Notes: generated by a model from the letters alone, not told the origin. Positions 26,563-52,205 are shown, counted from the stretch's first letter. The stretch: 64,000 bases of DNA from Spirulina sp. (GCA_044070495.1 JBIPSI010000012.1:64001-128000); one strand, 5' to 3'. Numbers and translations: made by a program.

Positions 26563-28864
26563 ACTGCACCTCTCGCACGAATAGGCATTGTTCAAGGGTT
26601 TGGATTCTGTCGGCGGTGAAGGATCGGTTGTGTCGCAAACTATCCACCAGCAGCCGCTGCATGTGGTAGTAGGTGCGCGTAGACTCGTCCGTAGACCCGC
26701 CCGTAGATCCATTCGTAGACCCGTCCGTAGACCCGTCCGTAGACCCATCACCCCAATCGCCACTCCAGCCGCGATAGCGGAACACGGCCTCCTGAAGACC
26801 TTGCCACCACGCCGCCCCCTCGGACTCGCACCAGGTCGCCAAGTCCCCCTGCTCTTCCAGCACATCCAGCAGTTGAGTCTGGAGTTGGCTCAGCGCATCT
26901 GCCAAATCCTGCCCCAGGGAAAATCGCTGGTGCAGATCCATGGCAAAGGCCAGGTCAAACCCCCGCTGCCCATCGGGAACCCTCAGCCAGTGCCGAGCCT
27001 GGTGCAGCAGGCGTATCAGGGCCTCATCTAGGGCGAGGCTGGGGGGCAAATCTACCGCCAGTCGGGCCTCTAAGGCGGTAGCTAGGTCGATTCCCTGCTC
27101 CAACCGCAGGCCCAGGTAAAATCCCCGCAGCGCCGCTGGATGATAGTCCTCGGCGATGGCTTCCGCCTGATCTTTGGCCCAACCTACCAGCGCCATCAAC
27201 CGGGGATGGGCTAGGACGTACTGCTGGCTTTGTCGCCAGAGGGCTTCCCACAGGGCGTCGGGTTGGGGCACCATTTCCACCGTGAGGAGGATCACCTCCC
27301 GCCAGCGGGCATCGGCAACGTGGCTGGCCAGGTCGGCCCAGTCCTCGGCCCCGGTTCTTTGCAGCGCCGTTAAGGCCCATCGGCGGGCGGTGAGGAATTC
27401 CTGAAAGCTGAGGTGGGCAAAGGCATAGCTGCCCAATTCCCGCTCCGTCAACATCCCGTAGTGTTCAATCAACACTTGCAGCATGGCTTTGCTGTCGGCC
27501 CACAGCCGCTCTAGGGTATCGCCCTGGGCACCCCGATTCACCAGGCTTTTGGCAATCAGACCCAGCAGTTCCGCCTCTTCTAGCACCACCCGGCCCTGCT
27601 CAAAGCTGTGGGCCGCAACGTCGGCCAAAACTCCGGTCAAATCTAGGGGAGATAGGTGTCGTAGGGGGTGGCTGCGATGGATGCCCCGCTGCTGATCCCA
27701 CTGCCCCAGCAGCAAATCTAGCGCCTGCTGGTACAGTTTGCTGCGCTGCTCTGGAAACTGGCCAAACCGCTGAAAAACCAGACACATCAAATGCAGCAGG
27801 ATGGGGGTGAGGGCCATTTCCCGCAGGCGGTCGTTCTCTGGGTGGTTGAGGGTTTGCAAGCAGGTTTGGGCAAACCATTCTCCCTGGATGGGCTGGCTGG
27901 CCGCAAACCACTTATAGACAAAGGCCTCGACCTGTTGGGGGGCAAATTCCGTCAGTTCCAGGGTGACTAAGCCATTAAGCTGGGGCAGAGGCCCACCGCT
28001 GCGCCCAGATATCAGCACCCGCAGGCCGGGGTAGGTATCCAATAGGGCCTGGATTTGCTGCGTTACGGCCCGATGCTGCTCTATGGGAAGTTCGTCCCAG
28101 CCATCCAGCAAGAGCCAGATCCGGCCCTGCTGCCACAGATGATCCACTTGCGATGGGCTTAACCCACTGGCTAACCAGCGCTGGTTGAGGTACTGCTGCA
28201 CAGGGATGTCCGTCTCAGACACCAGGGCCAACTGACGTAGGCGCAGAAAAACGGGCAGGTAAGCCATCCCGTCGCCCCGCCAGCCATCGGCGCTGATTTC
28301 CAAAACCAGATGCTGCAACAGGGTGGTTTTACCCGCCCCCGGCCCCCCCACGATCAACACCCGCGAGTGGGGCTGTATGGCTTCGGTAGCGGGTGTTTTG
28401 GCGAGGCTAGCCGCTGCTCCAAACCGTTGGTGGGGCCGTAAATAGGCTTCTGTGTAGAGTTGGGCCAGGGTGATGGGCTGGTGCAGATCGAGGGGGATCT
28501 CCAGCAGGTGGCACTGGGATTGGGCCAGGGTGATCAGGTGCAACCGCGCCTCGGCTAAATCACCCGCTGGGTTCTCGGCGGTCGAGGCAACGGCAGCCTG
28601 GGATTCCTCCGCCACCAGATCCGGCGTATCTGCAACAAAGGCGGATCGGTCAACAATATCTTCCCAATCCAGATCCAGGGTGAAACAGATATCGATAAAA
28701 ATGTGGCGTTCTACCGGACGCCCAGAAAAAAATTTCCACACCGACTGACGGGTTTGCAAACCCACCTCAGCCGCCAAATATTCCTGGGTCCATCCTCGCA
28801 AGTCAAAGGCTCGCTTGGCCCTAATGATGCCGTCTTGAGATGCCTTGAACGACCGTTTCGCCAT
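26549..28864 (-). CDS. NACHT (STAND) NTPase with N-terminal HTH
   Basis: WTQEYLAAEVG..RQSVWKFF HTH; Walker A GGPGAGKTT; Walker B LLLDGWDE; TPILL; YAFAHLSFQEFL; WREV. Confidence 0.9.
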   Translation of the reverse strand: MAKRSFKASQDGIIRAKRAFDLRGWTQEYLAAEVGLQTRQSVWKFFSGRPVERHIFIDICFTLDLDWEDIVDRSAFVADTPDLVAEESQAAVASTAENPAGDLAEARLHLITLAQSQCHLLEIPLDLHQPITLAQLYTEAYLRPHQRFGAAASLAKTPATEAIQPHSRVLIVGGPGAGKTTLLQHLVLEISADGWRGDGMAYLPVFLRLRQLALVSETDIPVQQYLNQRWLASGLSPSQVDHLWQQGRIWLLLDGWDELPIEQHRAVTQQIQALLDTYPGLRVLISGRSGGPLPQLNGLVTLELTEFAPQQVEAFVYKWFAASQPIQGEWFAQTCLQTLNHPENDRLREMALTPILLHLMCLVFQRFGQFPEQRSKLYQQALDLLLGQWDQQRGIHRSHPLRHLSPLDLTGVLADVAAHSFEQGRVVLEEAELLGLIAKSLVNRGAQGDTLERLWADSKAMLQVLIEHYGMLTERELGSYAFAHLSFQEFLTARRWALTALQRTGAEDWADLASHVADARWREVILLTVEMVPQPDALWEALWRQSQQYVLAHPRLMALVGWAKDQAEAIAEDYHPAALRGFYLGLRLEQGIDLATALEARLAVDLPPSLALDEALIRLLHQARHWLRVPDGQRGFDLAFAMDLHQRFSLGQDLADALSQLQTQLLDVLEEQGDLATWCESEGAAWWQGLQEAVFRYRGWSGDWGDGSTDGSTDGSTNGSTGGSTDESTRTYYHMQRLLVDSLRHNRSFTADRIQTLEQCLFVREVQYESA
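26678..26746. repeat. 12-bp in-frame tandem repeat encoding (D/N/G)GST in the NACHT C-terminus
   Basis: GTAGACCCGTCC-like units; peptide DGSTDGSTDGSTNGSTGGSTDEST. Confidence 0.85.
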
Positions 28865-33032: not shown

Positions 33033-34004
33033 TCAACGAAGCACCACAATCGGGTCTTGGCCTTGGGCCAGGATGGCAATCTGGCGGGTTTGGGGCTGGA
33101 GGAGGGCGATCTGGTGCCCTCCAAGCTGAAAGATCGCTAGGTCTCCAGTTAGGTGGGTAACGTAGCGAATTTGCCAAGACAACATCGGAGTTTCTAGGGC
33201 CAGGTGAAATCGTTCATTCTGGCTAGTTTTTTGGCCTGTTAATCCAGGCTTTGAGCGATTGAGAAAATATTGCCAGTTACCCGTTTCGGCCTTGGATATT
33301 CCCTGCGGAGGAAGCAGTTGGGGCACGGGGCCAAAGCGGTCTACCCGTTGGGGTTCCAGATCGGCAAAGACCTCTGGGGCAACGTGCTCAGCCCCAGTAC
33401 CATCCAAATTGATTTGCATAGGCTGGCCCTCCAGGGTTTTGAAATACAGCACGTAGGCCGCACTGGGCTGCAACTGCTGGGCAGGCACCAGACTGAACTG
33501 AGTCAGCAGAGTGGTTTGGCTACTGAGGGCATACCACCCCACCAGCACCAGATAGCTGATGCTGTGGATGAGTAAGTTGGCCTTTAGCGCCGTTTTGGCG
33601 GCCTGGGGCTTCTGTCGAAACAGCGCCCACACAAAGGGATACTCCATCACCAGGGTGATCACCAAGGCCAGCCCCAGCGCCCCCAGCAACCAACCCCAGG
33701 CCGTCGATAAAGCCACCCTGGGATGGTTCGATAGCCACCCCGGCAACAGCGCCAACCCCACCCAGGCCGAGGCCAAATTCGCGAACACCATCACTCCAAA
33801 CGACAATCGCCGGGGGGTATGGAATACTCTGGCAAGAATCCCGGACTCCAGATAGCCAATGCCCAAGTTGCCCAACATCAAGGGCCAAAACCCCACCCAC
33901 AGCATGGCGCTGCCACTATTGGCCTGGGCAGGGTGGGGCCAGAGGGCCAGGGCAAAACCTAGGCAGAGCCAGCGTAGGGGGAATTGTTTTAGACAAGTTA
34001 GCAT
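33033..34004 (-). CDS. Hypothetical membrane protein (signal peptide, about 4 TM segments, soluble C-terminus)
   Basis: PAQA signal-cleavage-like motif and hydrophobic segments. Confidence 0.7.
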   Translation of the reverse strand: MLTCLKQFPLRWLCLGFALALWPHPAQANSGSAMLWVGFWPLMLGNLGIGYLESGILARVFHTPRRLSFGVMVFANLASAWVGLALLPGWLSNHPRVALSTAWGWLLGALGLALVITLVMEYPFVWALFRQKPQAAKTALKANLLIHSISYLVLVGWYALSSQTTLLTQFSLVPAQQLQPSAAYVLYFKTLEGQPMQINLDGTGAEHVAPEVFADLEPQRVDRFGPVPQLLPPQGISKAETGNWQYFLNRSKPGLTGQKTSQNERFHLALETPMLSWQIRYVTHLTGDLAIFQLGGHQIALLQPQTRQIAILAQGQDPIVVLR

Positions 34005-34133
34005 TCGTCACCCTCGGAACAAGGAAATGGGAAGCCTGTATTTTGCGATTGGTAGGATAGGTTAACGCCAGCGCAATGAATCATTTTTTGTGATTCTTAG
34101 GCACAATTTTCAGCATTGAACCAGGCATCAACA

Positions 34134-34844
34134 TTAATCAAGATTGGTGTATGTAAATTCAATGCTGCCATCGCGAGTGCTACAGATCGCCGCACGATAT
34201 TGTCCACCAATGCGAGTGACCCCACAAGTACCCTCTTTTTCAGCGGTTTCGCCGTTATACATCACCCCAACTACGCGATAGCTCAAACCATGACCCATCT
34301 CAAATTCAGAGGCCGTGGTGGTCACAAAGGAAAAGGGCTGATTGTCAAAGTAGTAGCTAAAGACAAGGGCACCTTCGGAGGGCATCATGGTCATGCGAAA
34401 GGCTTCACATTGGAGAGGATTACTGCCTTGGGTATGGCATCGGGTGGGGCGGTTATCGTGATGAATAATTTGGAGATCGTCCGATGCCTGGGCAGTGGCA
34501 GAAGGGACTGGTGGGGAAGTCACTGGCATAGAACTCGCACTGGGCGCAGGTGCCGGAGGAGCGGCCTGGGGGGCTTGATTTCCACCGCCAATTTGCTGAA
34601 GAAAAGAATCAACGGTATTGATGGTTTCAATGACCGCACCTGCATCCCGAATAGCATCACCAATTTGGCGAAAAATATTGGCGACTAAAACAGAATCGGA
34701 TTCAGTGACAGATGCAGATTCAGTCCTTTGGGCGGCGGCAACACTAGGAGAGTGCCCCAAAAGGGAAACCAGCAGGATACCGGAGAGGCTGAGTCTATGG
34801 GCAAAGCTGGCACTTTTACGATAACGGGTCGTTAAGAATAGCAT
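34134..34844 (-). CDS. Secreted hypothetical protein (VAN-motif array member)
   Basis: Signal peptide, VLVANIF motif, Pro/Ala linker, C-terminal domain with 4 Cys. Confidence 0.75.
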   Translation of the reverse strand: MLFLTTRYRKSASFAHRLSLSGILLVSLLGHSPSVAAAQRTESASVTESDSVLVANIFRQIGDAIRDAGAVIETINTVDSFLQQIGGGNQAPQAAPPAPAPSASSMPVTSPPVPSATAQASDDLQIIHHDNRPTRCHTQGSNPLQCEAFRMTMMPSEGALVFSYYFDNQPFSFVTTTASEFEMGHGLSYRVVGVMYNGETAEKEGTCGVTRIGGQYRAAICSTRDGSIEFTYTNLD

Positions 34845-34892
34845 TGTGTTGTCCTCGTTAATGATTTGAGTGTAATCATGCTCAAGGTGGTA

Positions 34893-34919
34893 TATTTCTC
34901 ACCCGTTTGAGCCTATTCA
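34893..34919 (-). promoter_or_regulatory. Putative alternative-sigma promoter TGAATAGG-N12-AGAAATA
   Basis: Minus strand TGAATAGG ctcaaacgggtg AGAAATA, about 50 nt upstream of ATG 34844. Confidence 0.7.
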
Positions 34920-34981
34920 ATATCAGGGCCTTGTTTGCATCAGGGCATTCATCAACTGCTGAATACTGCCTTGATGGATAT

Positions 34982-35416
34982 TCAGTGGACGGCTAGCCTC
35001 TTCTTCTTTGTCAAACTGTGGAGGGTATTCACCATAGTCAGGATTGAGGTCATAAAAGCAGCATCACGAGAGAGTATCCTATCCGCAGCCGCCATGTATC
35101 GCATAAACCCGCTATCGGTCGCGAGATTGTAGCCGCGAGGTGACAAATTAGCCTTTTGTAAGGCTTCATAGCCATGGCGAACCATTACAGCGCAGTTGGA
35201 TCGAACCATCGCGACAATTCCCTGTCCGGACTGCATGGATGAGGGCAACGCCGCTTCGCAGGTGTCCGAAGCATTTTCCATGGCTTCCGATAGATCAGCG
35301 ATGAAGTGACTGGGCGCATGGTGTGCTGAAACGTGTTTGGGAATCATCGCACCCAGCGTAAAGGTGCTGGAAATACAGGTAAGAACTATTAGCTTGGTTA
35401 GCTTTTTTATGGGCAT
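34982..35416 (-). CDS. Secreted hypothetical protein
   Basis: Basic N-terminus, hydrophobic stretch, VSA cleavage-like site. Confidence 0.6.
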   Translation of the reverse strand: MPIKKLTKLIVLTCISSTFTLGAMIPKHVSAHHAPSHFIADLSEAMENASDTCEAALPSSMQSGQGIVAMVRSNCAVMVRHGYEALQKANLSPRGYNLATDSGFMRYMAAADRILSRDAAFMTSILTMVNTLHSLTKKKRLAVH

Positions 35417-35473
35417 GAGAAATTCTGGAGATGGGCAGTATTAATCAAAACAAAAGGATCAATTCTTCCTTAA

Positions 35474-36028
35474 TCAATCCTGTCTACACGCTGCAATTCT
35501 GTGTCTTAGGCAAATGTCTACTTCGTCGCTACTGCTGGAATTATCAGAACTATCCCCATTCTCCAACAACCACAAAATTATTGCGGCGGCGGCCTCCGCC
35601 TGGGCAGCTTGCCGAGCCCGCTGCTCTGCCAGATAGGCCTGCTGCTGTTCAGGGGTGAGGCTTTCAAAGTACTGGCGCTGGCGTTCGGCTTCTAGCTGCT
35701 GCTGCTCAGCCGCCGCTTGACGGATGGCCTCTTGCTGTTGAATCTGCTGTTGTCGAACGGCCTCCCATTCTCGTCGCTCTTGCTCTCGCTGCTGCCGCTC
35801 AATTTCCCGCTGCACTTGTTGGGCACCACGGTTGATGTCTCGGAGAATATTGCCAAGGTTAGCGACCATGACAGGCTCAGACGAATGAGACGTGGTCTGC
35901 ATGGTGGCCTGGGTGGCCGCACTGGCAGGGGGCGACCCCACCAATAGGGAGGCCAGCGCTAGGGCGGGCACCCCCAGGGCTAGGGTCAGGTAACGAGGGG
36001 ATAGATTCTGCATGGGACATATCCTCAT
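35474..36028 (-). CDS. Secreted coiled-coil protein (VAN-motif array member)
   Basis: Signal peptide ending ASA, VMVANLG, Q/E/R-rich helix, LTPEQQQAYL; start may be 36013. Confidence 0.75.
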   Translation of the reverse strand: MRICPMQNLSPRYLTLALGVPALALASLLVGSPPASAATQATMQTTSHSSEPVMVANLGNILRDINRGAQQVQREIERQQREQERREWEAVRQQQIQQQEAIRQAAAEQQQLEAERQRQYFESLTPEQQQAYLAEQRARQAAQAEAAAAIILWLLENGDSSDNSSSSDEVDICLRHRIAACRQD

Positions 36029-36056
36029 AAATACGTTAGGGTCAATTATTTGCTTC

Positions 36057-36083
36057 TAGTTCTGGGTCAAATAAACTTATTCA
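36057..36083 (-). promoter_or_regulatory. Putative alternative-sigma promoter TGAATAAG-N12-AGAACTA
   Basis: Minus strand TGAATAAG tttatttgaccc AGAACTA, upstream of 36028. Confidence 0.6.
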
Positions 36084-36177
36084 ACCGAGTAGATGTCGAG
36101 GCGGCGAATGTCAGAGATGCAGTCTGGCCCCAGATCATCTATACACAGACGGCATGCTGACTTCTGCTGAAGGGACG

Positions 36178-36204
36178 TATTGCTGGAGAACTTCAACCTA
36201 TTCA
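36178..36204 (-). promoter_or_regulatory. Putative alternative-sigma promoter TGAATAGG-N12-AGCAATA
   Basis: Minus strand TGAATAGG ttgaagttctcc AGCAATA. Confidence 0.6.
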
Positions 36205-36228
36205 AAGGGGCGATGTTGGCGTGGCCTA

Positions 36229-36444
36229 TCAGTTTGGGCTTTGCACGGATCGCCAATCCCGAATGAACGTGTCCAATAGACCCGTCAGTAGTTCTCTTTC
36301 TGCCGAAGCGTAGCTAACTCTATAGCCTAGAGATCCATAGCCCCCACCCCTGCTGTAGATATCCGCTTCAATGGTGCGGCCATTGAGCTGAACGGTGTGA
36401 AACACGCTGCCCCTGACGCTAATGGCCCCACCGTCATCGGTACA
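36229..36444 (-). pseudogene. Possible 3' remnant of a gene
   Basis: Stop-free frame of about 70 codons CTDDGGAISV...ELLTGLLDTFIRDWRSVQSPN*, preceded by TAA with no ATG. Confidence 0.35.
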
Positions 36445-36495
36445 TTAGTTGCCCTGACAAAATAGGACATTAACTACAGTGATTAATCTTTAGTA

Positions 36496-37110
36496 CTAGC
36501 GTGAGCAAACAGGATCGATGTAGCAAACCCATTCTTCACGGCTCATGCCTCGACGGTGGCTGGGGCCAGTCGGTTCATGCTCAGCCCTGGAGGCTTCCAC
36601 GGCGGCCCAGCCTTCAAACATGAAGTTCCACAGGCCATTGACCGTGTCCCGCTCTGCCTGCAAAAAAGCCTCTCGTTCTTCGGGGGTTAGGGTTTGCAGA
36701 AAGGCTTCTCGCTCTTGGCGACGGGCTTCTCGGCGGGCGGCATCTTCGGCTCGGCGACGCTGATAATCGTTCGCAAATTCACTACTGTTTTGCTGCCATT
36801 GTTCTAGCCGATCCTGGCGCATTTCCGTGCGTACCTGCGCTCCAGAATGGGGGGTCTGGGTTCTGGGCGTAGCGCGAGGGGCCTGTCCGCCCTGCGTGAT
36901 ACCTTCTAGGAGTTGCAGTCCATCGTGGACGGTTTGGAAAATATCAAACAGGTTGGCCACCCTAGCCGGATCGTCGGCAGTAGCGGTGCTTTCAGCAGGG
37001 GTGACGGCGGCGAGGCCGGGAACGGTGCCTAGCCAGGAAGCCAGGGCCAAGGTGGGTAGGGCAGCGCCTAGGCGAAACGTGTTGAACCAAGACATAGACC
37101 ATATCCTCAT
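36496..37110 (-). CDS. Secreted coiled-coil protein (VAN-motif array member)
   Basis: Signal peptide, ARVANLF, LTPEEREAFL, terminal Cys pair; start may be 37095. Confidence 0.75.
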   Translation of the reverse strand: MRIWSMSWFNTFRLGAALPTLALASWLGTVPGLAAVTPAESTATADDPARVANLFDIFQTVHDGLQLLEGITQGGQAPRATPRTQTPHSGAQVRTEMRQDRLEQWQQNSSEFANDYQRRRAEDAARREARRQEREAFLQTLTPEEREAFLQAERDTVNGLWNFMFEGWAAVEASRAEHEPTGPSHRRGMSREEWVCYIDPVCSR

Positions 37111-37139
37111 AACGGGGGTTGACTGCGGTCATGGGGATC

Positions 37140-37166
37140 TATTTCTGGGGCAGGCGAACCTATTCA
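37140..37166 (-). promoter_or_regulatory. Putative alternative-sigma promoter TGAATAGG-N12-AGAAATA
   Basis: Minus strand TGAATAGG ttcgcctgcccc AGAAATA, upstream of 37110. Confidence 0.7.
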
Positions 37167-37174
37167 CGGATGGG

Positions 37175-37559
37175 CTAGATTTCTCCAATTTCTTGTATGG
37201 CTAGGGCTAGGAATTGGCCAGCGCGATCAATCTGGTCGGCAGCTTGTGCAACGGTTACAGCGTTTAACTGACCGTAATCACCCATCGTTCGCAGCGCTTG
37301 GGCCTCAATCAAAAATTGATGAAATATCGTGGGCAGTTGTTGGGTTTTTGCAAATTCTCGTCCGAAGGCAGCAATCACCGCAGAGTGTTTAGAGAAGGAA
37401 AGCCCTTTACCATCTAAAAAAGCCTCCGCGATGTAGAACATTGCGTAGTAAGACCGCTAGACGGCATAGTCTGGATAGTTAGTTGTTGGTCAGGAGCAGT
37501 TTTGAGGCTTCTAGACTTTGTCTGGCCTTTTGCAGGAGTTCCTGTTGCTCTGAGGTCAT
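37175..37559 (-). pseudogene. HEPN-domain gene disrupted by a frameshift and a nonsense codon
   Basis: MTSEQQELLQKARQSLEASKLLL..., AACT duplication giving TAA, then YPDYAV*RSYYAMFY...SKHSAVIAAFG...LRTMGDYG. Confidence 0.8.
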
Positions 37560-37876
37560 AATAAAATGCCTTCTTTACGGATGTTGCGAAGCAGGGCTGT
37601 ATTGCGAGTTTGATACTGGATATCATCCATAAATAGGCAGGTAATCACGACATCATGATGAAGGGATAAATCGGCTACAACGTTACCCGTTCGCTGGATT
37701 TCTTCACCTGGATTGATTGGGGACTTGAGCACCACTAAAACATCAATATCGGATTCGGGTGTCGCATTGCCGCGAGATTGGGAACCAAACAGGGTGAGAT
37801 GGACTAAGCGATCCCTGTAGATGTCAGAGAGCGCTTGCTTAAGTTGAGCCAAGATAACAGCAAGGGCAGCATCCAT
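37556..37876 (-). CDS. Minimal nucleotidyltransferase (MNT) antitoxin-type protein
   Basis: LFGSQSRG..PESDIDVLVV; stop overlaps the HEPN start. Confidence 0.88.
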   Translation of the reverse strand: MDAALAVILAQLKQALSDIYRDRLVHLTLFGSQSRGNATPESDIDVLVVLKSPINPGEEIQRTGNVVADLSLHHDVVITCLFMDDIQYQTRNTALLRNIRKEGILL

Positions 37877-37993
37877 AGAAAAAGCCAGCAAGAAGTTCCT
37901 ATTTCTAGGGTAGAAGAGGTTTTGCAAATCAGGTTTAAGGTATTTGTAATGCCTAGATGCCCGGTTTCTTGAAGCAACTGGGCATCTAGGATG

Positions 37994-38797
37994 CTAGGAG
38001 GTGATTTCTTCGCTACAGATGGTGTCGATGAGGGTGGTTTGTAGGGTGGTGAGGGCCGGGGTAAGGTCGGTTTCGTCTACGGAAAAGAGGATGTGCAGGG
38101 CATCGGCGGGCATGTCCTGTTCTAGGAAGTAAGTGGCTTTGGCCTCGGCAATGGCGGCACTATTCGCCCCTTGGGCCACCAAGTCGGTGTGCAATTGGGC
38201 GAGGTCGATGGTGATTTGGTCGCGATCTGGGCCGTTGGACATGACCCGAAAGGGCAGGATGTAGGTTGGTAGACCTGAGTTCTCGGCACGGGCGGAGGTT
38301 TGATAGATGCGCCACTCGTAGCGGGTGCCCGGTTCTAGGGGGGTGGCCTCAAAGGGCGCTTTAACCAAAGCATCACCGACGGCATTGGGGGCAACGCTCC
38401 AGAGCACAAGCGGGGGTGGGTCAATGCGGCGTCGCAGAAAGGGCTGAAATTCCTTCACCTCCATACGACTGACCCGCCCCTGGATCAGGAAAAGGGGTTG
38501 GAGATGCCAGAGGGTATCGTTTCTGCCGGGGTTGAGGATGCAGGTGCGGCTGGGTTCAGCTTCGCTACCCTCCGCTGTTTCGACCCAGCCATCGCCCCTG
38601 GAGGTGCCATCGCGGCCTCGGTTGCGGTCTTCGGGGTCGCGCCGGAAAAATTCGATGATGGTTGGGTCTGGGCTGAGCTGGGTCGGCTCTACCTGGGCGG
38701 CGGCGGACGGCCCATTAACGAGTATCGAGGCTAACCCTAGGGTCACGGCACCTAGTCCCAGGCTCGCGGTAATCGTGATCGGTCTAATGGGTTGCAT
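37994..38797 (-). CDS. Secreted DUF928-like protein
   Basis: Signal peptide ending AAAQ, GRDGTSRG, PLEPGTRYEW, C-terminal helices with ADALHIL; overlaps the CHAT-CHASE2 stop. Confidence 0.7.
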   Translation of the reverse strand: MQPIRPITITASLGLGAVTLGLASILVNGPSAAAQVEPTQLSPDPTIIEFFRRDPEDRNRGRDGTSRGDGWVETAEGSEAEPSRTCILNPGRNDTLWHLQPLFLIQGRVSRMEVKEFQPFLRRRIDPPPLVLWSVAPNAVGDALVKAPFEATPLEPGTRYEWRIYQTSARAENSGLPTYILPFRVMSNGPDRDQITIDLAQLHTDLVAQGANSAAIAEAKATYFLEQDMPADALHILFSVDETDLTPALTTLQTTLIDTICSEEITS

Positions 38798-41168
38798 CCG
38801 TATTTCCTCTTAGACTAGACAAACCATAACACCCCACCACCAGCGACGGCAGCAGCCAGGGCAGCAGCACCGCCCCGCTGATGTAAAGCTGTAACGACAG
38901 CAGTCCGTAGCCAGTGGTGGCCAATCCCAGGCCCAAGCTCACCTGCCAGCGGGGGCGAGGATGGACAGCCAGGTGCAGGCTCAGGGCTTTGCCCAGCCCA
39001 GCGGCAACGAGAATCAGCCACAGGTCTGGGATGGGCACTACCAGGCGGTTGTTCAGTAAATGGTGAACCATGTAGGCGTGGGCTTCGCCGCCGGTGATGT
39101 GGGTGGCGGGTTGGTTGGCCCGTCGTCGCCAGTGGGCCAGGGCGGGGGGGATGGGCATATTGTCTTCGCCAGCGGCCACCAGTCCGGCGGCATGGTAGCC
39201 TCCGGGGGCCACAACCACCACGGCATTGGTGAGGTCGGGCAGATCGGCGGCATTTTCCCAAAGCTGCCAGGCGGGGATGGTGACAAAGACCCGATCCGGC
39301 GGCAGGGAAAAGTCCATCAAGGGCTGAAGCCACTGTTGCCAAATCCAATCTGAGGCATAGGTGATGGGGTGGAGGGTGGCGCGACGGGGCAGACCCAGAT
39401 CGTGCTGTTGGCGGTAGGCGGCGACCTGGTCGGCCAGGGGTGGGCCATCCAAAGCAGGGCGCGGTGCGGCGGGGGCGGTTTGGCGCTGGTGCAAACGGTG
39501 GGCCACGGCCAGTTGATAGCTGAAGGGGTTTTGCAAATGGGGGGCTGAACGCTGGGGCAACATCCGCCACCAGGGCACCCGCACATTGCCCAGCAGCACA
39601 CGATCCGGGGCAATGACATGGGGATGGGGCGTCAACCAAGCGCCCCCCTGACGAGCCGTAGCCACCACGGGCCAGATGCCTTGATTGATAGCGGATTCTA
39701 GGGCTTGGCGCAGTTCAGCATCGTGGGCGGGCTGGGCCAAATCGAGGATGTAGTCTAGGCCAATGACCGGGGCTTGGCGACGGCTGATTTCAGCCACAAT
39801 CGTCGCCAGCATGGCCCGGTTGATGGGCGTATAGTCCGTCGCCCCCCAGCGAATAAAGCTCTCGCCGTCCACCTGCACCAGCACCACGGGCGGGTTAGCC
39901 GGGGGTAGCTGTCCGGTCAGGTCGCGATACACCGCCTGCGCCGCCACCCGCTGATCCATCAGCCAAGCCTGGGGTACCCAGTTGGCCTCGGCAGGAATTA
40001 GGCTAATCGCCGCCAGGGCGCTAACGATCAGGGCTTCGCGGCGGGTGGGTTGCCAGCGTCGCCACCGACTACGCCAGCCCGTAGGTTCGAGTTGGTAGGG
40101 CACCGAGGCCGGATGGCGAAACAGCGACGGCACCAGGTAGGCCGAGGGATAGGTGAGGTTTTGCGCTAGCTTGAGGAATTGGCAGGCTCCGCGCAGGGCT
40201 GCCTGGACGTTTTCGCCACGGGCAAGGCGCTGGAGCAACTGCACTAAAAAGGTTTGGGCCACCTGGTTATGGATCGGCTCCCGCATAACCGCCACCTGGC
40301 TGAGGCCGAGGTTAATCAACCCCTGGGCAATGTCTAGGCCGCTGCACGAATTGAACAGGGCAAACTGAAGCCCCCGCCGCTGGGCCTGTTGCAGAGCGGG
40401 GGTGAGATCCTGAATCGACAGGGCCAAGTTGGGGGCAATGGCCACCTCGCCCCCCACCCAGGCCGCCTCGTTGCTGTGGCCCGCAAAAAAGAGAATGTCC
40501 CAGCCCTGGGGATCCGCAATAGCCTCGTAGATGCGACGCTTCAGGGCATTGGCCTCCTCCTCCGGCTGCCAGCCCACATAGTGAATGTCCATCACCACTG
40601 CCTGGGCGGCGAGGGCGTTGCGTTCCTCGGTGAAGTTCAGCCCGGTTTCGTCGCCCAAAATCGCCAAGACCCGCGTTTTGCCCCGCCGAAAGGAACGCCG
40701 ATTCACCGCCTCGGCCCGAATGGTGGGCGGCGACCGCAAAATCTGCACTGGGGGGCCAAATTCCCAGGTTTCCCAGGGCAACCGAGCCAAGTCCAGCGGC
40801 GTGCAGGTGAGAAATAGCTCCAGCGGGGCGGCGGGATGCGCAGACTGAGCGGCCCTGACAATTTCCTGGCGCAGATCAAACAAATCCCCCTGCCGCAGCC
40901 AGCGATGGAACTCCGACAACAGCCGCGCCTCCGCCTGCCCCAGTTGGCTGTGCCAATCCACCGGAGCCGCCACCACCTGCCCCATCGCCCCGGCCCGCCC
41001 CCGCAGGGCTTGCTTGTAATAGCCCAAATAGGCCCGCCGCCAGGTGTCGTAGAGCGGCAACAGGGTGTCAGGAAAGGCCACCGTCGCCGTGATTCGCTGC
41101 CCCTCGCCCCAGGTGAGATCGAACAGGCCGCTCTGATCGATTTTGTGAACAGTAAGGCGGTAGGGCAT
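38784..41168 (-). CDS. Membrane protein: CHAT (caspase-like) domain, TM, CHASE2 sensor, C-terminal TMs
   Basis: LARLPWE, FFAGHS (His), LFNSCSG (Cys), VAVMREPI; VVLVQVD, INRAMLA, VIGLDYILD, GGEAHA; start MPYRL at 41168. Confidence 0.85.
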   Translation of the reverse strand: MPYRLTVHKIDQSGLFDLTWGEGQRITATVAFPDTLLPLYDTWRRAYLGYYKQALRGRAGAMGQVVAAPVDWHSQLGQAEARLLSEFHRWLRQGDLFDLRQEIVRAAQSAHPAAPLELFLTCTPLDLARLPWETWEFGPPVQILRSPPTIRAEAVNRRSFRRGKTRVLAILGDETGLNFTEERNALAAQAVVMDIHYVGWQPEEEANALKRRIYEAIADPQGWDILFFAGHSNEAAWVGGEVAIAPNLALSIQDLTPALQQAQRRGLQFALFNSCSGLDIAQGLINLGLSQVAVMREPIHNQVAQTFLVQLLQRLARGENVQAALRGACQFLKLAQNLTYPSAYLVPSLFRHPASVPYQLEPTGWRSRWRRWQPTRREALIVSALAAISLIPAEANWVPQAWLMDQRVAAQAVYRDLTGQLPPANPPVVLVQVDGESFIRWGATDYTPINRAMLATIVAEISRRQAPVIGLDYILDLAQPAHDAELRQALESAINQGIWPVVATARQGGAWLTPHPHVIAPDRVLLGNVRVPWWRMLPQRSAPHLQNPFSYQLAVAHRLHQRQTAPAAPRPALDGPPLADQVAAYRQQHDLGLPRRATLHPITYASDWIWQQWLQPLMDFSLPPDRVFVTIPAWQLWENAADLPDLTNAVVVVAPGGYHAAGLVAAGEDNMPIPPALAHWRRRANQPATHITGGEAHAYMVHHLLNNRLVVPIPDLWLILVAAGLGKALSLHLAVHPRPRWQVSLGLGLATTGYGLLSLQLYISGAVLLPWLLPSLVVGCYGLSSLRGNTDATH

Positions 41169-41222
41169 GGGATGGCGGAATGGCGGAATGGCGGGATGGC
41201 GGGATGGCGGGATGGCGGGATG
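41169..41222. repeat. 8-bp tandem repeat GG(G/A)ATGGC
   Basis: Visible array immediately upstream of the CHAT-CHASE2 start. Confidence 0.85.
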
Positions 41223-41306
41223 GGGCAAAGCGTAGGGCATAACGCCAGGGTGAGACTAGCGCCAGGGCGAAGCAATGCACCATCTACTCACGAAGCAATG
41301 CCCTAT

Positions 41307-42530
41307 TTATTGAACCGGATCCTCTGGGCGAAAGACAAAGGGGGGCCAATGGAGGGTTGCGCCGTTGGGGAGTTGAATGGCCACGGTGAAGGCTTCTTCC
41401 CAGGTGCCGAAGACCTGGACATAGAGGTATTGGGCGGAACTTTGGGCATCGAGGGAACTATCCGCCAGCAGCCCTGTAGCATCGCTGACCTGGAGGCGTA
41501 CCCCATCTGGTAGCGTATCGCCGGGGGCTGGCCCTAGGACTAGAAACAGGCACCATTCTGGCTCAGGATGCTCCCACACAGGCCAGATCAGGGCATAGAG
41601 CCGCAGGGGCAATCCGGTGGCCTGGAGATCGGTGTAGGCTCCCCTGGCGGCGGCGGGGATTTCCACTCCGGCGGGGGCCAGTTCGCGCAAAACGGCCTCT
41701 AGGGTATCGGCGGGGCTTTGTGCGGCCATCAGGGCATGGGAGAGGGCAAGGGGCGGCAACAGGTTCCAGGTCAGGGTTTCGGTAACATGGGCGGTGACCG
41801 CATCAAGCCGATCCTGAAGCCATGGCCCCACATTGATCCATGGCCTGGTGGGCGAATCTGGGACGGATGCCATCGTCGGAGAGGTCGGGGGGGCTGGGGC
41901 GGTTTCCGGTGCCGCCGCCAAAAGCTGATCGGGGTTCAAACAGGTGAGGTAGAGCAAAATCTCCTCCGGTTCGGTATCAAACAGGGCGATGGGCAGGGTG
42001 TAGGTGTCGCCGTTATGGGTCAGGTGGCCGCTGGCTTGGTGGGACAACAGGCGATCCCGGCGTAGGCCACCCAGTATCGTCACCTGGTCGGCTTCTTCGC
42101 GCACTTCGACTAAGAGGTAGATGTGGGCGAAGGATGGTGGGGTGATGGGGTGGTGGGGTGGTGGGGTGGTGGGGTGGTGGGTGGTGGGGTGGTGGGTGGT
42201 TTGGGGGATGGTGACTTGGTCGTCGCTGAGGCTGCCTTGCACGACTAAACACAGGCGAAAACCGTTGACTTCGGCCTGGATGCCTGTGCCTGGGGGCTGG
42301 GTGGGGTCGTAGGTGAGGGTTAGTCCGGTGCTGCCCTGCCGCAGCCAGTGATCGACCCCCCGTAGCGCCATAGCCCGCAAAAAGGTGAGCCACTGGTGGG
42401 CTTCGGGTTCGGATTGGCCGATTTGCACCGCCCAATCTACCTCTGCCGGGGAGAGGTGAACCGTGGCGGGGTGAAGGCGATCAAACTCGACATCGGGGGC
42501 GAGGTCTGGGAATTCGGGGGAAGCACTCAT
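41307..42530 (-). CDS. DUF1822-family protein
   Basis: EVNGFRLCLV, VTIP, FAHIYLLVEVREE, INVGPWLQ, C-terminal beta-rich domain ending LPNGATLHWPPF. Confidence 0.8.
   Translation of the reverse strand: MSASPEFPDLAPDVEFDRLHPATVHLSPAEVDWAVQIGQSEPEAHQWLTFLRAMALRGVDHWLRQGSTGLTLTYDPTQPPGTGIQAEVNGFRLCLVVQGSLSDDQVTIPQTTHHPTTHHPTTPPPHHPITPPSFAHIYLLVEVREEADQVTILGGLRRDRLLSHQASGHLTHNGDTYTLPIALFDTEPEEILLYLTCLNPDQLLAAAPETAPAPPTSPTMASVPDSPTRPWINVGPWLQDRLDAVTAHVTETLTWNLLPPLALSHALMAAQSPADTLEAVLRELAPAGVEIPAAARGAYTDLQATGLPLRLYALIWPVWEHPEPEWCLFLVLGPAPGDTLPDGVRLQVSDATGLLADSSLDAQSSAQYLYVQVFGTWEEAFTVAIQLPNGATLHWPPFVFRPEDPVQ
42135..42200. repeat. G-rich tandem repeat (GGGGTGGT/GGGTGGT) in frame within the DUF1822 gene
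   Basis: Encodes TTHHPTTHHPTTPPPHHPITPP. Confidence 0.8.
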
Positions 42531-42585
42531 AGGGCATAGACTCGCGATGGGGTGGGTGAGGTAGGAATACATTAGAGTTGAGGGC

Positions 42586-43941
42586 TTAGGGTTGAGGGGG
42601 TAAAAAGGCGTGGATTTCGGTACAGAGGTGCTGGCTAAAGCGGCTTTTTACCGGGCGGGGTTTGGGCGCTTGGGCCTCGGCGGCGGCTTCGGCAATTAGG
42701 TCATCCACCGTTTCTGCTAACAGGGTTTCTAAGGTTTGATCGATGGCCTGGAGCCGATCCGCCGAGACGTAATTCAGGGCTTCCTGGCGCAGGGTGGCGT
42801 GCAGTTGGGGAATCAGCCGATGGCGCACCTCCGCCCGCAGCCGTTTCAGGTTCAGCAGCCGCGTCACCTGCACCTGGGAACTCAGGCCAATGCGCGGAGC
42901 TACGGCCCCCATGGCCAACCCTTCACACTGGCGCAGATAGAGACCCTGCACGTAGGCGCTGTCCTGGGGTGGGGTGCGCTGGCGAAGCTGGCGCATTTGG
43001 TCGGCGATCACCTGGCGTAGGGTGCCCCCCAAATGGTGATTCAGGCTGGCCCGATAGCGATCCAAAAAATCCATCTGTTCATCCGGGACTGGGGCCGCTT
43101 GGCGGGTTTGGGCGATGCTTTCGAGTTCAGAGTCGTCCTGGGGTTGGTAAAGCTGGGGATGTCCACCCCGTCCGTGGATGCGGTATTGCCGGAGTTGGGT
43201 GGCCAACTGCCGCAGATTGGCCTTCACCTGTTTGGGGGAGCGGGTGGAATCCATGGCCTGCAATTGGTCGGGGCTGGGTTCTGGACAGCGTCCGGCCTTA
43301 CCCTGTTGTCGCTGGCGCAGCCGATCCTGGCGATAGACCCGATGGTAGCTCTCCAGCAGGGCCACCGCCTGATCGACCTCGTAGGTGCTGCACAGATGAT
43401 AGTCGCGTAAAATGCGCTGCACCTGGGCGGGGGTGGTGTCGTTCAAAATCGCCCAATCGCTGGCCTGGTATAGTCCCTTTTCTAGCAGCCATTGGTTGAG
43501 GTCGGGATGGGTTTTGGTGAGGCGATGGCTCCAGGCACTGAGACGCCCCTTGGTGGGGTCGTAGCTCTCCAAAATCCGCAGGGTGAAGGGCTGATGGCGG
43601 GGGCGAGGGCGTCCATCATCCTCTAAAACCAGGGGCAGCAGGTCGGCGGTGGTAAAGCCGTAGCGTTCTCCATGGCGCTGGGCCAACCCCATACAGCAAC
43701 TCCGAATCTGGTGGGTCACCCAACCGCGCAAGCTCAACTGGGCCAGATCGGCCTCCGCCTGCCCCCTCTGCCAACGGTCAAACAGCGCCCGCTGAAGCTG
43801 GGCTTCCTGCTCCTCCAGGTTGTCTAACCAAGGGGCGAAGGCCTCCTGAAGCCAGGGTTTCACCGTCGCCAGTTCCAGGGTTTGAAGCTGGCCTCCACTG
43901 GTGAGCCGCACCAGGTGCCAATATCGTGAAGCGTTATTCAT
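42586..43941 (-). CDS. Hypothetical protein, probable divergent sigma-70-like factor
   Basis: Region-2.3-like ILESYDPTKGRLSAWSHR; region-4.2-like HTH LYLRQCEGLAMGAVAPRIGLSSQVQVTRLL; start MNNAS at 43941. Confidence 0.6.
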   Translation of the reverse strand: MNNASRYWHLVRLTSGGQLQTLELATVKPWLQEAFAPWLDNLEEQEAQLQRALFDRWQRGQAEADLAQLSLRGWVTHQIRSCCMGLAQRHGERYGFTTADLLPLVLEDDGRPRPRHQPFTLRILESYDPTKGRLSAWSHRLTKTHPDLNQWLLEKGLYQASDWAILNDTTPAQVQRILRDYHLCSTYEVDQAVALLESYHRVYRQDRLRQRQQGKAGRCPEPSPDQLQAMDSTRSPKQVKANLRQLATQLRQYRIHGRGGHPQLYQPQDDSELESIAQTRQAAPVPDEQMDFLDRYRASLNHHLGGTLRQVIADQMRQLRQRTPPQDSAYVQGLYLRQCEGLAMGAVAPRIGLSSQVQVTRLLNLKRLRAEVRHRLIPQLHATLRQEALNYVSADRLQAIDQTLETLLAETVDDLIAEAAAEAQAPKPRPVKSRFSQHLCTEIHAFLPPQP

Positions 43942-44053
43942 AGCAGGGCAAACATTCTGCCTATCACAGTAAGTTGAACGGTCTCTCAACATCCCTCTAC
44001 CCGTGGGAGAGGGATTTAGGGTAAGGGCTAGTTCGGCTAAAGCTGTTCTACCG

Positions 44054-44080
44054 TATTTCTGAGCAGGGAAGACCTATTCA
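44054..44080 (-). promoter_or_regulatory. Putative autoregulatory promoter TGAATAGG-N12-AGAAATA
   Basis: Minus strand TGAATAGG tcttccctgctc AGAAATA, upstream of the sigma-like gene. Confidence 0.7.
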
Positions 44081-44249
44081 CCGGAAGGAGAAAGGTTTAG
44101 CGTTCTGGGGTGCAGTGGCTATGATAGACAGCAGTTGTTGGCGCGCCCTTAGCCCCCGCCATGGAACATCGGGCGTAGCCCTGGCCCACGGTGCCCCCTA
44201 GCCCATCGTTCTAGGCAAGGCCATTCCCTGAGCAATCCTTGGTTGAACC

Positions 44250-44381
44250 ATGAATGCCGTCGAAATCGAAGAAGCCGTTTCCCAACTGGCCGAAGCCCCC
44301 TTTGACCCCGAAGCGTTTCCCTTTGCCTTCCTGGAAGCCTTTGGCAATAAGGCCACCATGATCAAGAAGCTCAGGAGATAG
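44250..44381 (+). pseudogene. 43-codon N-terminal remnant of an MmeI-like restriction-modification gene
   Basis: MNAVEIEEAVSQLAEAPFDPEAFPFAFLEAFGNKATMIKKLRR*; family recognised from memory. Confidence 0.65.
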
Positions 44382-44469
44382 TATTCGTATCAACGATCAG
44401 TGGCGCATTTGTTTTTTGTGGACAGATGAAAATAATGCAGATCAAGTTGAAATTGTAGATTATCACTGA
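44380..44469 (+). pseudogene. higB: C-terminal remnant of HigB-like toxin
   Basis: SIRINDQWRICFLW...VEIVDYH*. Confidence 0.8.
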
Positions 44470-44856: not shown

Positions 44857-45135
44857 TCAAGATAAGTTGGGCTCTTCCGGGTTCAGGGTGATGGCGGCTT
44901 GTTCTCCTGGGTCAAGGGTATTGAGGGTTGGATCAACTTCGGGAACAGATTGCACGGTAAGCCAGGAAGGAGGTTTGGCAATCCATTGTTGGAGAATGAG
45001 GGGAGCATCAGGGTCGATCATTTCATCTCGAACAACATCGGGAATGATGATTTTCTGAAATAATTGGGGCAGGAGATGAACCTGGCCAATCAGCAGTAGA
45101 TAGTTGATGGGCGAGGTATCGGAAACGACAATCAT
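44857..45135 (-). pseudogene. Truncated DUF3368/PIN-type toxin
   Basis: IVVSDTSPINYL...LDPGEQAAITL then abrupt end at 92 aa. Confidence 0.7.
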
Positions 45136-45410
45136 GAAGCACTGTGAACTTGCTTTTCGCGGAGTTGACGGAGAGTGCCACGGTCTTGCTCTAAATCTGC
45201 CTCGTCGTAATGTAGTTCAACATTATGCTGCTTTAAGAAATTATCTACGGCCCAACGAGAGGGTAAGCCTAGTATGTGACCCACTTCGGCACTGGTAATT
45301 TTTTCTGCTTGGTAGGCTTGTATTGTAAGGGCTTCTAGAATTTCGCGGGAAAGGTTGTCTGGGTTAAAGTATTGAGCCAGTGAATCAGGCAGATCGAGAA
45401 TGATTTGCAT
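45132..45410 (-). CDS. UPF0175-family antitoxin-like protein
   Basis: YQAEKITSAEVGHILGL.SRW; ATGA overlap with the PIN gene. Confidence 0.8.
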   Translation of the reverse strand: MQIILDLPDSLAQYFNPDNLSREILEALTIQAYQAEKITSAEVGHILGLPSRWAVDNFLKQHNVELHYDEADLEQDRGTLRQLREKQVHSAS

Positions 45411-45489
45411 AGGGGAACCCCGTATATTCATACATCTTCAAGCAAGTGAGTGACCAGAACTGCTAAGGGTTTTCAGGCAAAATTAATCA

Positions 45490-51800: not shown

Positions 51801-52205
51801 GAAATAGTCCTTAATCAGCGGGTAATTCAAGCTAAAAGCAAATCGCCCCAGGGCACGAATTTGCCCCGCCCCCGCCAAAATAGAATCCGTTCCCTTCAGT
51901 TCGCTGGGGAACCATTCATCCAAATAGCTGTAGGCGGAAAGCTTATTCAAAATCGCCTTGGCATCCTCCACCTTGGCCCAAATTTGCTCAATGGGTCGCA
52001 GGGAAATATCCTGTTTCAGCACCGTCTGCGCCTCAGATACCCGCGCATTTTGCTCGGTATCGATATGCAGAAATGACACAATTGGCAACGCATCCAACGA
52101 TCCGTACTGCTCCACAATCATGCGGCGGATTTTAATCAAAATCTCTTTGCCAGTTCCCCCCAAACCAATGATGACGGTGGGGGTCATGCCTGTGTATTCG
52201 CTCAT
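48849..52205 (-). CDS. Large protein with N-terminal tubulin/FtsZ-like GTPase domain
   Basis: IIGLGGTG, GAGQIRALGR, SLSGGTGSG, ANAYAALMEL; start MSEYT at 52205. Confidence 0.88.
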   Translation of the reverse strand: MSEYTGMTPTVIIGLGGTGKEILIKIRRMIVEQYGSLDALPIVSFLHIDTEQNARVSEAQTVLKQDISLRPIEQIWAKVEDAKAILNKLSAYSYLDEWFPSELKGTDSILAGAGQIRALGRFAFSLNYPLIKDYFNKAKGRIVGHEKFMLDRWKVQLDKGINIFVVCSLSGGTGSGMVLDLAYNLRDWVPISELPQTSAFLVLPGAFSGLGDRVIANAYAALMELNHFSRGDTRFDVQYSDSQSDRITSQSGLDMPFNFTYLVGNSNDKVTFPTLGNVLEMVSQNVFLDFTSGFSQYKKMVRDNVRKHWASPDALGYPQNFMSFGLSSIQFPVERVLNACSARLAGKLVDWWSNPTPAPSAMSDLIRTEILPGLFLAESEHDHQIIDSISMGDNKKPYAKEVADWAAGIRKRRNDLNIPFENLQRFISNEQEKYAPHFHDTGTDPKRWSDYFQKMWDNLSWLIPEKRKELRATVYQMVEDRFRGPKFTRQFLEVLIEVFADFRSKFDQDRQKNWLPKERSAQNALQTLLKQIDNHAQQMLMLNRKKVIEDDFNGIMQALEQIYVSKVEVKARTLGVMLLDGLREEIDQLLVDLTAFETVLANVHTELKDKERVYTRETGGLTVNGILLYDEKEIDAAYSKTVADQEETLCQTLSQQVLEELRLRLFDLYQFDTLKTKDLYERLLGQSMEVFRRRSQLDISTARKFLEQYPTVEMQEAQIKTTFEKSEAFLRLSQEQKKLGWDDKLEKYQKLVGIQGGSKPTDPAVSALLPMIRKTSTVTDKEIRPLNDPYHIYFVQETGAFPLRMIEGMERMRSLYRAVSQADHNPLHTHQDYRQFGDIMPETSNERQARYNLMLANALGLVREEENRVTGFGEIKFTYRDKLTGFDKTDVMGATWQEAEDFLLTDQNRRLAETLDNAIRAIGEQAATKPQKQTLYAQVMTYLQQQEQTLPGGPDSDDYKRIQAAISNFVTTHRLFIPGENPAPQPTAAPQDPVRAHSSAPQPNPASADENLGKYTKLVDTCYRRGNPSATELELLEKFRVKYGVSVEQANAIAAQYQPQDTIEQAAAEYGLMFRAFIENDGEVDLEEQAQLLELQEELGLTNEQVAIIEENVRSELA

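Follow-up and report, generated by a model that had tools for sequence, protein, structure and literature searches.

A rigidly spaced promoter-like motif, probably read by the adjacent sigma-like protein, in a gene cluster of Spirulina sp.

To characterize a bipartite motif that an earlier note had pointed out in Spirulina sp., we analyzed a 64,000-nucleotide (nt) stretch of its genome (GCA_044070495.1, JBIPSI010000012.1:64001-128000), which is C12:64001-128000 in our contig numbering and is hereafter called the window; the genome comprises 5,313,730 bases on 74 contigs. The motif, TGAATARG-N12-AGMAMTA, occurs five times in a 10.5-kb cluster of genes (33900-44400). It is very probably a conserved promoter-like element, and we consider it likely, with a probability of about 0.75, that the five copies are promoters read by the 451-amino-acid (aa) sigma-like protein encoded among them at 42586-43941 on the minus strand.

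An exact pattern scan of the window recovered all five copies on the minus strand at the coordinates that the note had given, and no chance match was obtained in 100 dinucleotide-preserving shuffles of the window. Numbered in their order along that strand, copy 1 (44054-44080), copy 2 (37140-37166) and copy 5 (34893-34919) read TGAATAGG-N12-AGAAATA, copy 3 (36178-36204) reads TGAATAGG-N12-AGCAATA and copy 4 (36057-36083) reads TGAATAAG-N12-AGAACTA. As had been noted, the sequence TGAATAGG...AGAAATA is thus found in three copies, and the 12-nt spacer differs in each of the five. According to the map of open reading frames (ORFs), every copy is intergenic and directed at the next gene: copy 1 at the presumed sigma-like operon, whose autoregulated promoter it may be, copy 2 at a gene for a 204-aa exported protein, copies 3 and 4 as a tandem pair at a gene for a 184-aa exported protein, and copy 5 at a gene for a 236-aa exported protein. 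The first possible ATG follows the end of the motif after 61, 29, 149, 28 and 48 nt for copies 1 to 5, the first distance becoming 112 nt with the start that is backed by the alignment of homologues. The orthologue of the 184-aa gene in two related loci (L002 and L004) was also preceded by tandem motif copies, 60 nt apart.

Elsewhere in the window, where inspection by eye had suggested no further copy, a scan allowing up to two mismatches added just one site, 51923-51949, within a long ORF. The note had proposed scanning the whole genome as well as the regions upstream of homologous sigma-like genes. The genome-wide scan with the strict pattern returned six matches, namely the five window copies and one at C9:81290, which puts five of the six in the window cluster, and strict boxes separated by 10, 11, 13 or 14 nt had no match in the genome. 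A consensus scan of the cluster detected no sigma-70-like promoter, against a mean of 5.1 (standard deviation 2.7) in shuffled sequence. Terminator-like sites in the same interval numbered two, against a shuffle mean of 9.8.

The upstream regions of homologous genes gave further evidence of conservation. When one genome per species was scanned, 430 relatives of the 451-aa protein were found, and the best 80 loci (1.27 Mb) were analyzed; their sigma-like proteins are 35-93% identical, and the closest homologues belong, by their record names, to Nodosilinea/Leptolyngbya-like cyanobacteria; a 57%-identical homologue is carried by Leptolyngbya sp. BL0902. With the pattern loosened for other cyanobacteria to TG[AC]ATA[AG][AG]-N12-[AG]GNNNT[AG], the 400 nt preceding the sigma-like gene held a match on the strand of the gene in 56 of the 80 loci (57 if a match overlapping the start codon is also counted), and on the reverse strand of the same 400 nt in none. 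Spacers of 8-11 or 13-17 nt gave 0-1 of the 80 loci each, shuffled upstream regions gave a mean of 0.065 loci, and other 400-nt windows of the same loci held the loosened pattern in 80 of 6110 cases. When the six closest relatives were aligned over their upstream regions (alignment A2), the boxes emerged as the sole invariant island before the start codon. Over all loci, 118 sites were found on the sigma strand and 27 on the opposite one, and an ORF of at least 50 aa started within 100 nt downstream of 116 of the 145 sites by a lenient ORF rule. The box variants track the protein clades in the tree, and where a genome has two or three systems, these hold differing variants.

A third conserved element was found downstream of the boxes. 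With motif positions numbered from the first T of box 1, positions 36 and 37 stood out among 52 unique sigma-upstream instances: a pyrimidine at 36 followed by a purine at 37 (the Y-R step) was present in 54 of 56 sigma-upstream sites, in 76 of 87 other sites and in all five window copies (CA, TG, CA, TA and TG from copy 1 to copy 5), whereas such a step at any other offset occurred in 0-25 of the 56 and in 4-42 of the 87. The 87 other sites had played no part in noticing this signal, and the step was not used to find sites. Bacterial start sites usually prefer a pyrimidine at -1 and a purine at +1. If the step is read as the transcription start, box 1 comes to lie at -36 to -29 and box 2 at -16 to -10, and transcription of the minus strand would begin at 44044 (A), 37130 (G), 36168 (A), 36047 (A) and 34883 (G) for copies 1 to 5. 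The leaders predicted in this way, measured to the likely start codons, would be of 103 (52 with the upstream ATG), 35, 155, 34 and 39 nt. The -35/-10 geometry put forward in the note is supported by this arrangement, and its register, TGAA-N16-AGAA, can be refined; a better description is GAATAR (-35 to -30)-N16-NMTA (-13 to -10)-N8-Y(-1)R(+1), where GAATAR stands for positions 2-7, NMTA for positions 24-27 with an invariant A27, and Y for position 36. Beyond this register, T at -36, G at -29, A at -16 and G at -15 are conserved in addition.

Motif and gene also co-occurred across the phylum. The sigma-like gene was present in 24 of 201 genomes, and the seven genomes with at least ten pattern matches (15, 22, 11, 11, 10, 13 and 12) all carried it; the top count among the 177 genomes without the gene was 6, by reading of the table, and a reversed-pattern control gave 0-7. 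Eight further genomes had, among the matches listed for them, one lying 50-165 nt upstream of the sigma-like gene.

In Spirulina sp. itself, a paralogous system was found on contig C35 (3403-44639, plus strand), with a sigma that is 56.5% identical, a DUF1822 protein and, 22 kb further on, a CHAT-CHASE2 protein; C73, C74 and C11:108796 were grouped with this second system. A weight-matrix scan of the genome at 17.5 bits or more gave 25 sites, of which six are on C12, 12 on C35, three on the small contigs C73 and C74 and four elsewhere. The 12 sites of C35 lie on a single strand ahead of genes for large signal-peptide proteins of 700-1160 aa, and the C35 sigma gene is preceded, at 98 nt, by the top-scoring site of the genome. 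Three of the weight-matrix matches, C20:979, C53:11835 and C12:115949 (window position 51949), were set aside as probable chance, being inside long ORFs, the first two also without the Y-R step. The sole strict copy outside the two clusters, C9:81290-81316 on the plus strand, is intergenic with C-A at positions 36/37, and no convincing gene was seen within 125 nt downstream of it. The two systems differ in their boxes, position 7 being G in four of five C12 sites versus one of 12 C35 sites (Fisher p = 0.0099) and position 24 being A in five of five versus two of 12 (p = 0.0034), in a comparison that comprises 5 and 12 sites only. When sites were compared with the sigma promoter of their own locus, the base at position 24 of the neighbouring site was the same in 39 of 63 pairs, against a permuted mean of 23.7, and none of 2000 permutations reached 39.

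The 451-aa protein is predicted to have a sigma-like fold. An AlphaFold (AF2) model built from the alignment had a predicted local distance difference test score (pLDDT) of 87 and a predicted template modelling score of 0.53, and when it was searched against the PDB with Foldseek, almost all of the top rows were sigma factors, the best with E 0.021. By VIA-align, residues 45-157 matched sigmaA domain 2 (4x8k_A; Z 7.6, root-mean-square deviation (rmsd) 2.8, 93 aa), RpoS region 2 (5h6x_B; Z 7.6), SigI6 (8i24_F; Z 6.7), the N-terminal domain of SigE (Z 6.3) and SigC (Z 5.9), all with Z below 8, and residues 299-378 matched region 4 of E. coli sigmaE on -35 DNA (2h27_D; Z 4.9, rmsd 2.3, 68 of 69 aa) and region 4 of SigL (3hug_A; Z 4.8). 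We call the fold sigma-like because the two domains stand in the right order and because sigma factors dominate the top rows. As for the sequence, TIGR02937 was weakly matched by five of 32 family members (best E 0.0058), and the nearest named clusters of the ESM Atlas contain cyanobacterial proteins 340-550 aa long, 12-87% of the members carrying Sigma70_r4.

The model is made up of an N-terminal segment (1-45), sigma domain 2 (about 45-157), a middle domain (about 158-268), sigma domain 4 (about 299-378) and a C-terminal segment (380-451), with a low-confidence linker at 267-286. Sigma domains 2 and 4, the two parts of the extracytoplasmic function (ECF) sigmas, are thus predicted by the model, but the protein is not a canonical small ECF sigma: its 451 aa go beyond the two-domain layout by a hairpin region at the N terminus, a middle domain of 110 aa and an extension of 70 aa at the C terminus. 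The middle domain folded alone gave no clear match by VIA-align (best Z 5.5; sigma-related rows Z 4.0-4.7). Conservation within the family is highest at residues 161-169 (SDWAILNDT), where W163, A164, L166, N167 and D168 are invariant in 32 sequences.

The gene directly downstream (41307-42572, minus strand) encodes a DUF1822 protein (Pfam PF08852, E 3.1e-23), the predicted partner and candidate inhibitor of the sigma-like protein, and an ORF of 300-600 aa follows the sigma-like gene in 69 of the 80 loci. The complex modelled from alignments A1 and A3 reached a score of 0.75, compared with 0.00 for the best of three controls; the 0.75 mark was attained by 116 of 157 solved complexes and by two of 215 mismatched pairs. 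Between runs of the complex model at least 51% of the contacts agreed, and the pLDDT of the partner was at least 69. The predicted interface takes in residues 153-258 of the sigma-like protein, with the conserved residues 161-169 at its centre together with the middle domain, and residues 42-65, 112-118 and 157-163 of the DUF1822 protein, including the invariant W61 and E160. As a prediction, the complex model supports binding of the DUF1822 protein to the sigma-like protein.

The remaining genes of the cluster are likewise on the minus strand. The sigma-like ORF itself is open from 43992, its start at MNNASRYW being that of the homologues (alignment A1). Following the DUF1822 gene, 38784-41240 encodes a membrane receptor with an N-terminal CHAT (caspase-like) protease and CHASE2 (Pfam CHASE2 E 1.7e-13, CHAT E 1e-06), in which the His and Cys motifs are kept, as seen by pairwise alignment. 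The last gene of the presumed operon (37994-38797) overlaps the end of the receptor gene and encodes a 267-aa protein with an N-terminal signal-like segment; a 32%-identical paralogue occupies the equivalent position on C35. The name DUF928 was considered for this protein and dropped, as no Pfam match was obtained even at E 5.

Four genes for exported proteins follow. The 204-aa protein (36496-37110) has a signal peptide and a likely true start at 37095, behind GAGGA; its 184-aa paralogue (35474-36028) has a signal peptide and a likely true start at 36013; the 144-aa protein (34982-35416) has a signal peptide, and its gene, which is without its own motif copy, may be co-transcribed with the 184-aa gene; and the 236-aa protein (34134-34844) carries the N-terminal signature common to the 204-aa and 184-aa proteins. 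The 204-, 184- and 236-aa proteins, whose genes stand behind motif copies, form one small exported family without a Pfam match, with members also in L002, L003 and L004. Its layout is a signal peptide, 'SEPVxVANL' and a Q/E/R-rich stretch with 'SLTPEQQ', and most members end in a C-terminal 'GMSxxEYxCYIDPxCGR'.

Other features of the neighbourhood were recorded in passing. Between the sigma operon and the first motif-driven gene lies a nucleotidyltransferase (PF01909, E 1.2e-10) and HEPN pair (37175-37927, minus strand); of the 117 model positions the HEPN ORF, only 88 aa long, covers 35-113, and its start is overlapped by an ORF of 70 aa in a different frame (37414-37626), so that a frameshift or truncation of the HEPN gene may have occurred. 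Just upstream of motif copy 3, in the 468 nt that separate the 204-aa gene from the 184-aa gene, there is a 58-aa ORF without family match (36229-36405, minus strand), which may be a gene remnant. Further away, three conflict-system-like features were seen on the minus strand: a 771-aa NACHT STAND NTPase (26549-28864), a UPF0175 antitoxin-like protein beside a 92-aa ORF (45132-45431) and a 1139-aa tubulin-like protein (PF13809; 48849-52268). The G+C content falls to 0.38-0.46 at 44-48 kb, directly adjoining the cluster.

Canonical ECF sigmas have a private bipartite promoter of rigid spacing, a copy of it before their own operon and a co-encoded inhibitor that is released by proteolysis. They are about 200 aa long, have no domains beyond sigma 2 and sigma 4 and are recognized by Pfam Sigma70_r2 and r4, and many ECF groups have an 'AAC' core in the -35 and a 'CGT' core in the -10 element. 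The present system resembles them in its putative private bipartite promoter, its rigid spacing, the copy before its own operon and the co-encoded candidate inhibitor, for which release by proteolysis is likewise proposed; it is unlike them in that the 451-aa protein matches neither Sigma70_r2 nor r4 and that the boxes are without the 'AAC' and 'CGT' cores.

HetZ of Anabaena sp. PCC 7120 is described, on the basis of cryo-electron microscopy and in vitro transcription, as an ECF-type sigma with three inserted domains, arranged in the order i1, sigma 2, i2, sigma 3.2, sigma 4 and i3 (Hu et al., PNAS 2026, PMC13342950). According to the same work, sigma-HetZ reads TCCGGA at -35 to -30 and TGNA at -13 to -10, with the consensus TCCGGA-N16-17-TGNA-N7-9-T, and PatU3 is its likely anti-sigma; PatU3 is cleaved by the CHAT protease HetF (PNAS 2022, PMC9457339). 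Like sigma-HetZ, the 451-aa protein is, in its model, a large ECF-type protein in which extra domains precede sigma 2, separate it from sigma 4 and follow sigma 4, and the predicted segments follow the same order, HetZ having been compared by its description only. The promoters share their geometry, that is, a hexamer at -35 to -30, 16 nt, a tetramer ending in A at -10, 8 nt and a pyrimidine, and each system also has its partner gene immediately downstream and includes a membrane CHAT protease. The boxes themselves differ, however, being GAATAR and NMTA with the additional T at -36, G at -29, A at -16 and G at -15 here and TCCGGA and TGNA there. The partner here is a DUF1822 protein and not PatU3; the protease carries CHASE2, unlike HetF with its periplasmic TPRs, and is encoded inside the operon; and the putative regulon consists of exported proteins, in a relative of Nodosilinea/Leptolyngbya-like cyanobacteria. 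The sigma-like family profile (A1) had no match at E ≤ 10 in five genomes of another family, and the portion available of the supplementary text of PMC13342950 makes no mention of the family.

A neighbourhood of EACC2-caspase, sigma and DUF1822 genes had been catalogued computationally by Kaur, Iyer, Burroughs and Aravind (eLife 2021, PMC8195603), who proposed that its sigma regulates 'a multiplicity of genes'. The present cluster is like that neighbourhood in combining a CHAT protein with a variable C-terminus (CHASE2 here), a DUF1822 protein and a sigma, the latter recognized by its predicted fold only. The motif, its register and the target genes are added here to their account, which, in the portion available, is without promoter, regulon, experiment, HetF, HetZ or PatU. 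Within the literature that we searched, no printed description of the motif or promoter was found, and the sigma/DUF1822/CHAT-receptor cluster appeared as this one computed gene neighbourhood only.

We propose that RNA polymerase carrying the 451-aa protein would recognize the five copies, the sigma-4-like domain contacting box 1 (-36 to -29) and the sigma-2 domain together with the inserted domains contacting box 2 (-16 to -10), and that transcription would begin at the conserved purine 10 nt past box 2. Copy 1 would drive the operon of the factor itself (sigma-like protein, DUF1822 protein, CHAT-CHASE2 receptor and 267-aa protein), resulting in positive feedback, and the other four copies would drive three small exported-protein genes, one of them, the 184-aa gene, from tandem promoters with copy 3 as the upstream and copy 4 as the putative proximal one. 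By analogy with HetF-PatU3-HetZ, the DUF1822 protein may keep the factor inactive until the CHAT protease, triggered via CHASE2, removes it.

Several results weigh against this assignment. The 451-aa protein had no Pfam match at E 0.01 or E 5 and no NCBIfam match, and a profile of 32 homologues searched against all PDB sequences found no sigma factor, the best match being a MarR protein with E 0.084. The Foldseek search of the PDB gave no row at E ≤ 0.001, and a VIA-align Z below 8, as with all of the fold matches, can reflect a common helical arrangement. Since the loci are kin, counts and permutation tests overstate independence. The pattern as written is missing from 24 of the 80 loci, and some carriers of the gene have few strict matches (G017 three, G038 one and G059 one), in keeping with the 24 loci, where a motif, if there is one, has diverged from the pattern. 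The predicted DUF1822 interface (residues 153-258) is unlike the PatU3 cross-links of sigma-HetZ, which are described on i1, i3 and sigma 4. Finally, the predicted starts come from sequence alone, and the two paralogous sigmas have similar motifs, so cross-recognition may occur.

Alternatively, the motif might be an ordinary transcription factor site, for example that of a response regulator with two half-sites, with a housekeeping or group-2 sigma doing the transcription and the sigma-like protein being either that factor or unrelated. The manner in which the starts were predicted, the failure of the 451-aa protein with every sigma sequence model, and a GAATA/GAAATA-like core that is common to both boxes, as in tandem half-sites, all speak for such a site. 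We nevertheless regard it as unlikely: the spacing is invariant, the orientation is always that of the downstream gene, the Y-R step is fixed 9-10 nt downstream, and no sigma-70-like promoter was detectable by the consensus scan beside any copy. Moreover, the variation of box 2 does not mirror that of box 1, sigma domains 2 and 4 succeed each other correctly in the predicted fold, and no other conserved gene of the cluster has a DNA-binding domain by Pfam. It is less probable still that the promoters are read mainly by the paralogous sigma of C35, or by both sigmas alike, the adjacent gene being linked to the motif by neighbourhood only. The 56.5% identity of the two proteins and the same boxes and spacing at the 12 sites of the C35 island would agree with this, but positions 7 and 24 differ between the clusters (over 5 and 12 sites only), and a matching split by clade was found in other genomes with two or three systems.

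That the copies are relics of a repeat that was duplicated or mobile, or an RNA-acting motif, without a role in initiation, is scarcely credible, although short sequences repeated within 9 kb on one strand might at first sight suggest it. A duplicated repeat or mobile element was ruled out by the unrelated spacers and flanks, and an RNA structure formed by the two boxes by their not being mutually complementary; in addition, the motif persists at orthologous positions even where the proteins have diverged to 35% identity. The preference of the earlier note for a promoter over a duplicated repeat was upheld by the boxes and spacing kept in 56 of 80 loci, the fixed Y-R step, the co-occurrence of motif and gene and the system-specific variants. 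Reading of the five copies by the adjacent 451-aa protein is accordingly the explanation that we retain.

On this reading, putative targets can be named in other cyanobacteria as well, and 49 proteins encoded downstream of motif sites in the related loci were scanned. Among them are nine signal-peptide TPR-CHAT proteins, TPR-only proteins and proteins that combine RTX repeats with TPRs, as well as two caspase-DUF4384 proteins, a CHAT-CHASE2 receptor, a trypsin-like peptidase and a pilin-like protein. The set also comprises small proteins with a PPC domain and many small exported ones without family. A 95-aa peptide is encoded behind the motif in three Nodosilinea loci (L016:2848-3132, L019:5604-5888 and L021:5145-5429 (-)); its N-terminal half ends in a double-glycine-like 'CSGG', and may thus resemble the leader of exported bacteriocin-type peptides.

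A wider picture, which we put forward tentatively and at slightly less than even odds, is that the sigma-HetZ-like factors of cyanobacteria form a large family, are insulated from one another and often occur two or three to a genome. Each would use its own variant of one rigid grammar (GAATAR/GCATAR, N16, NMTA, N8, YR), would be held by a DUF1822 protein and freed by a receptor-linked caspase-like protease, and would command private exported proteins such as TPR-CHAT proteases, caspases, RTX-TPR proteins and small secreted proteins; HetZ would then be a specialised offshoot of an older, general device leading from the outside to transcription. Together with the work of 2022 and 2026 on HetF, PatU3 and HetZ, our results suggest that the heterocyst switch may exemplify a more general mechanism. 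Among cyanobacteria, the sigma/DUF1822/CHAT-receptor cluster is widespread, as the 430 relatives from one scan indicate, and a dedicated promoter of rigid grammar turns a computed neighbourhood into a testable circuit with named targets and base-precise predicted starts. The natural and apparently orthogonal pairs of sigma and promoter could also serve as switches for cyanobacterial engineering. Given sigma-HetZ, the mechanism itself would not be surprising; the value of the motif lies in a readable regulon for a widespread signalling module, since, if the proposal is true, each such regulon could be read directly from the genome sequence.

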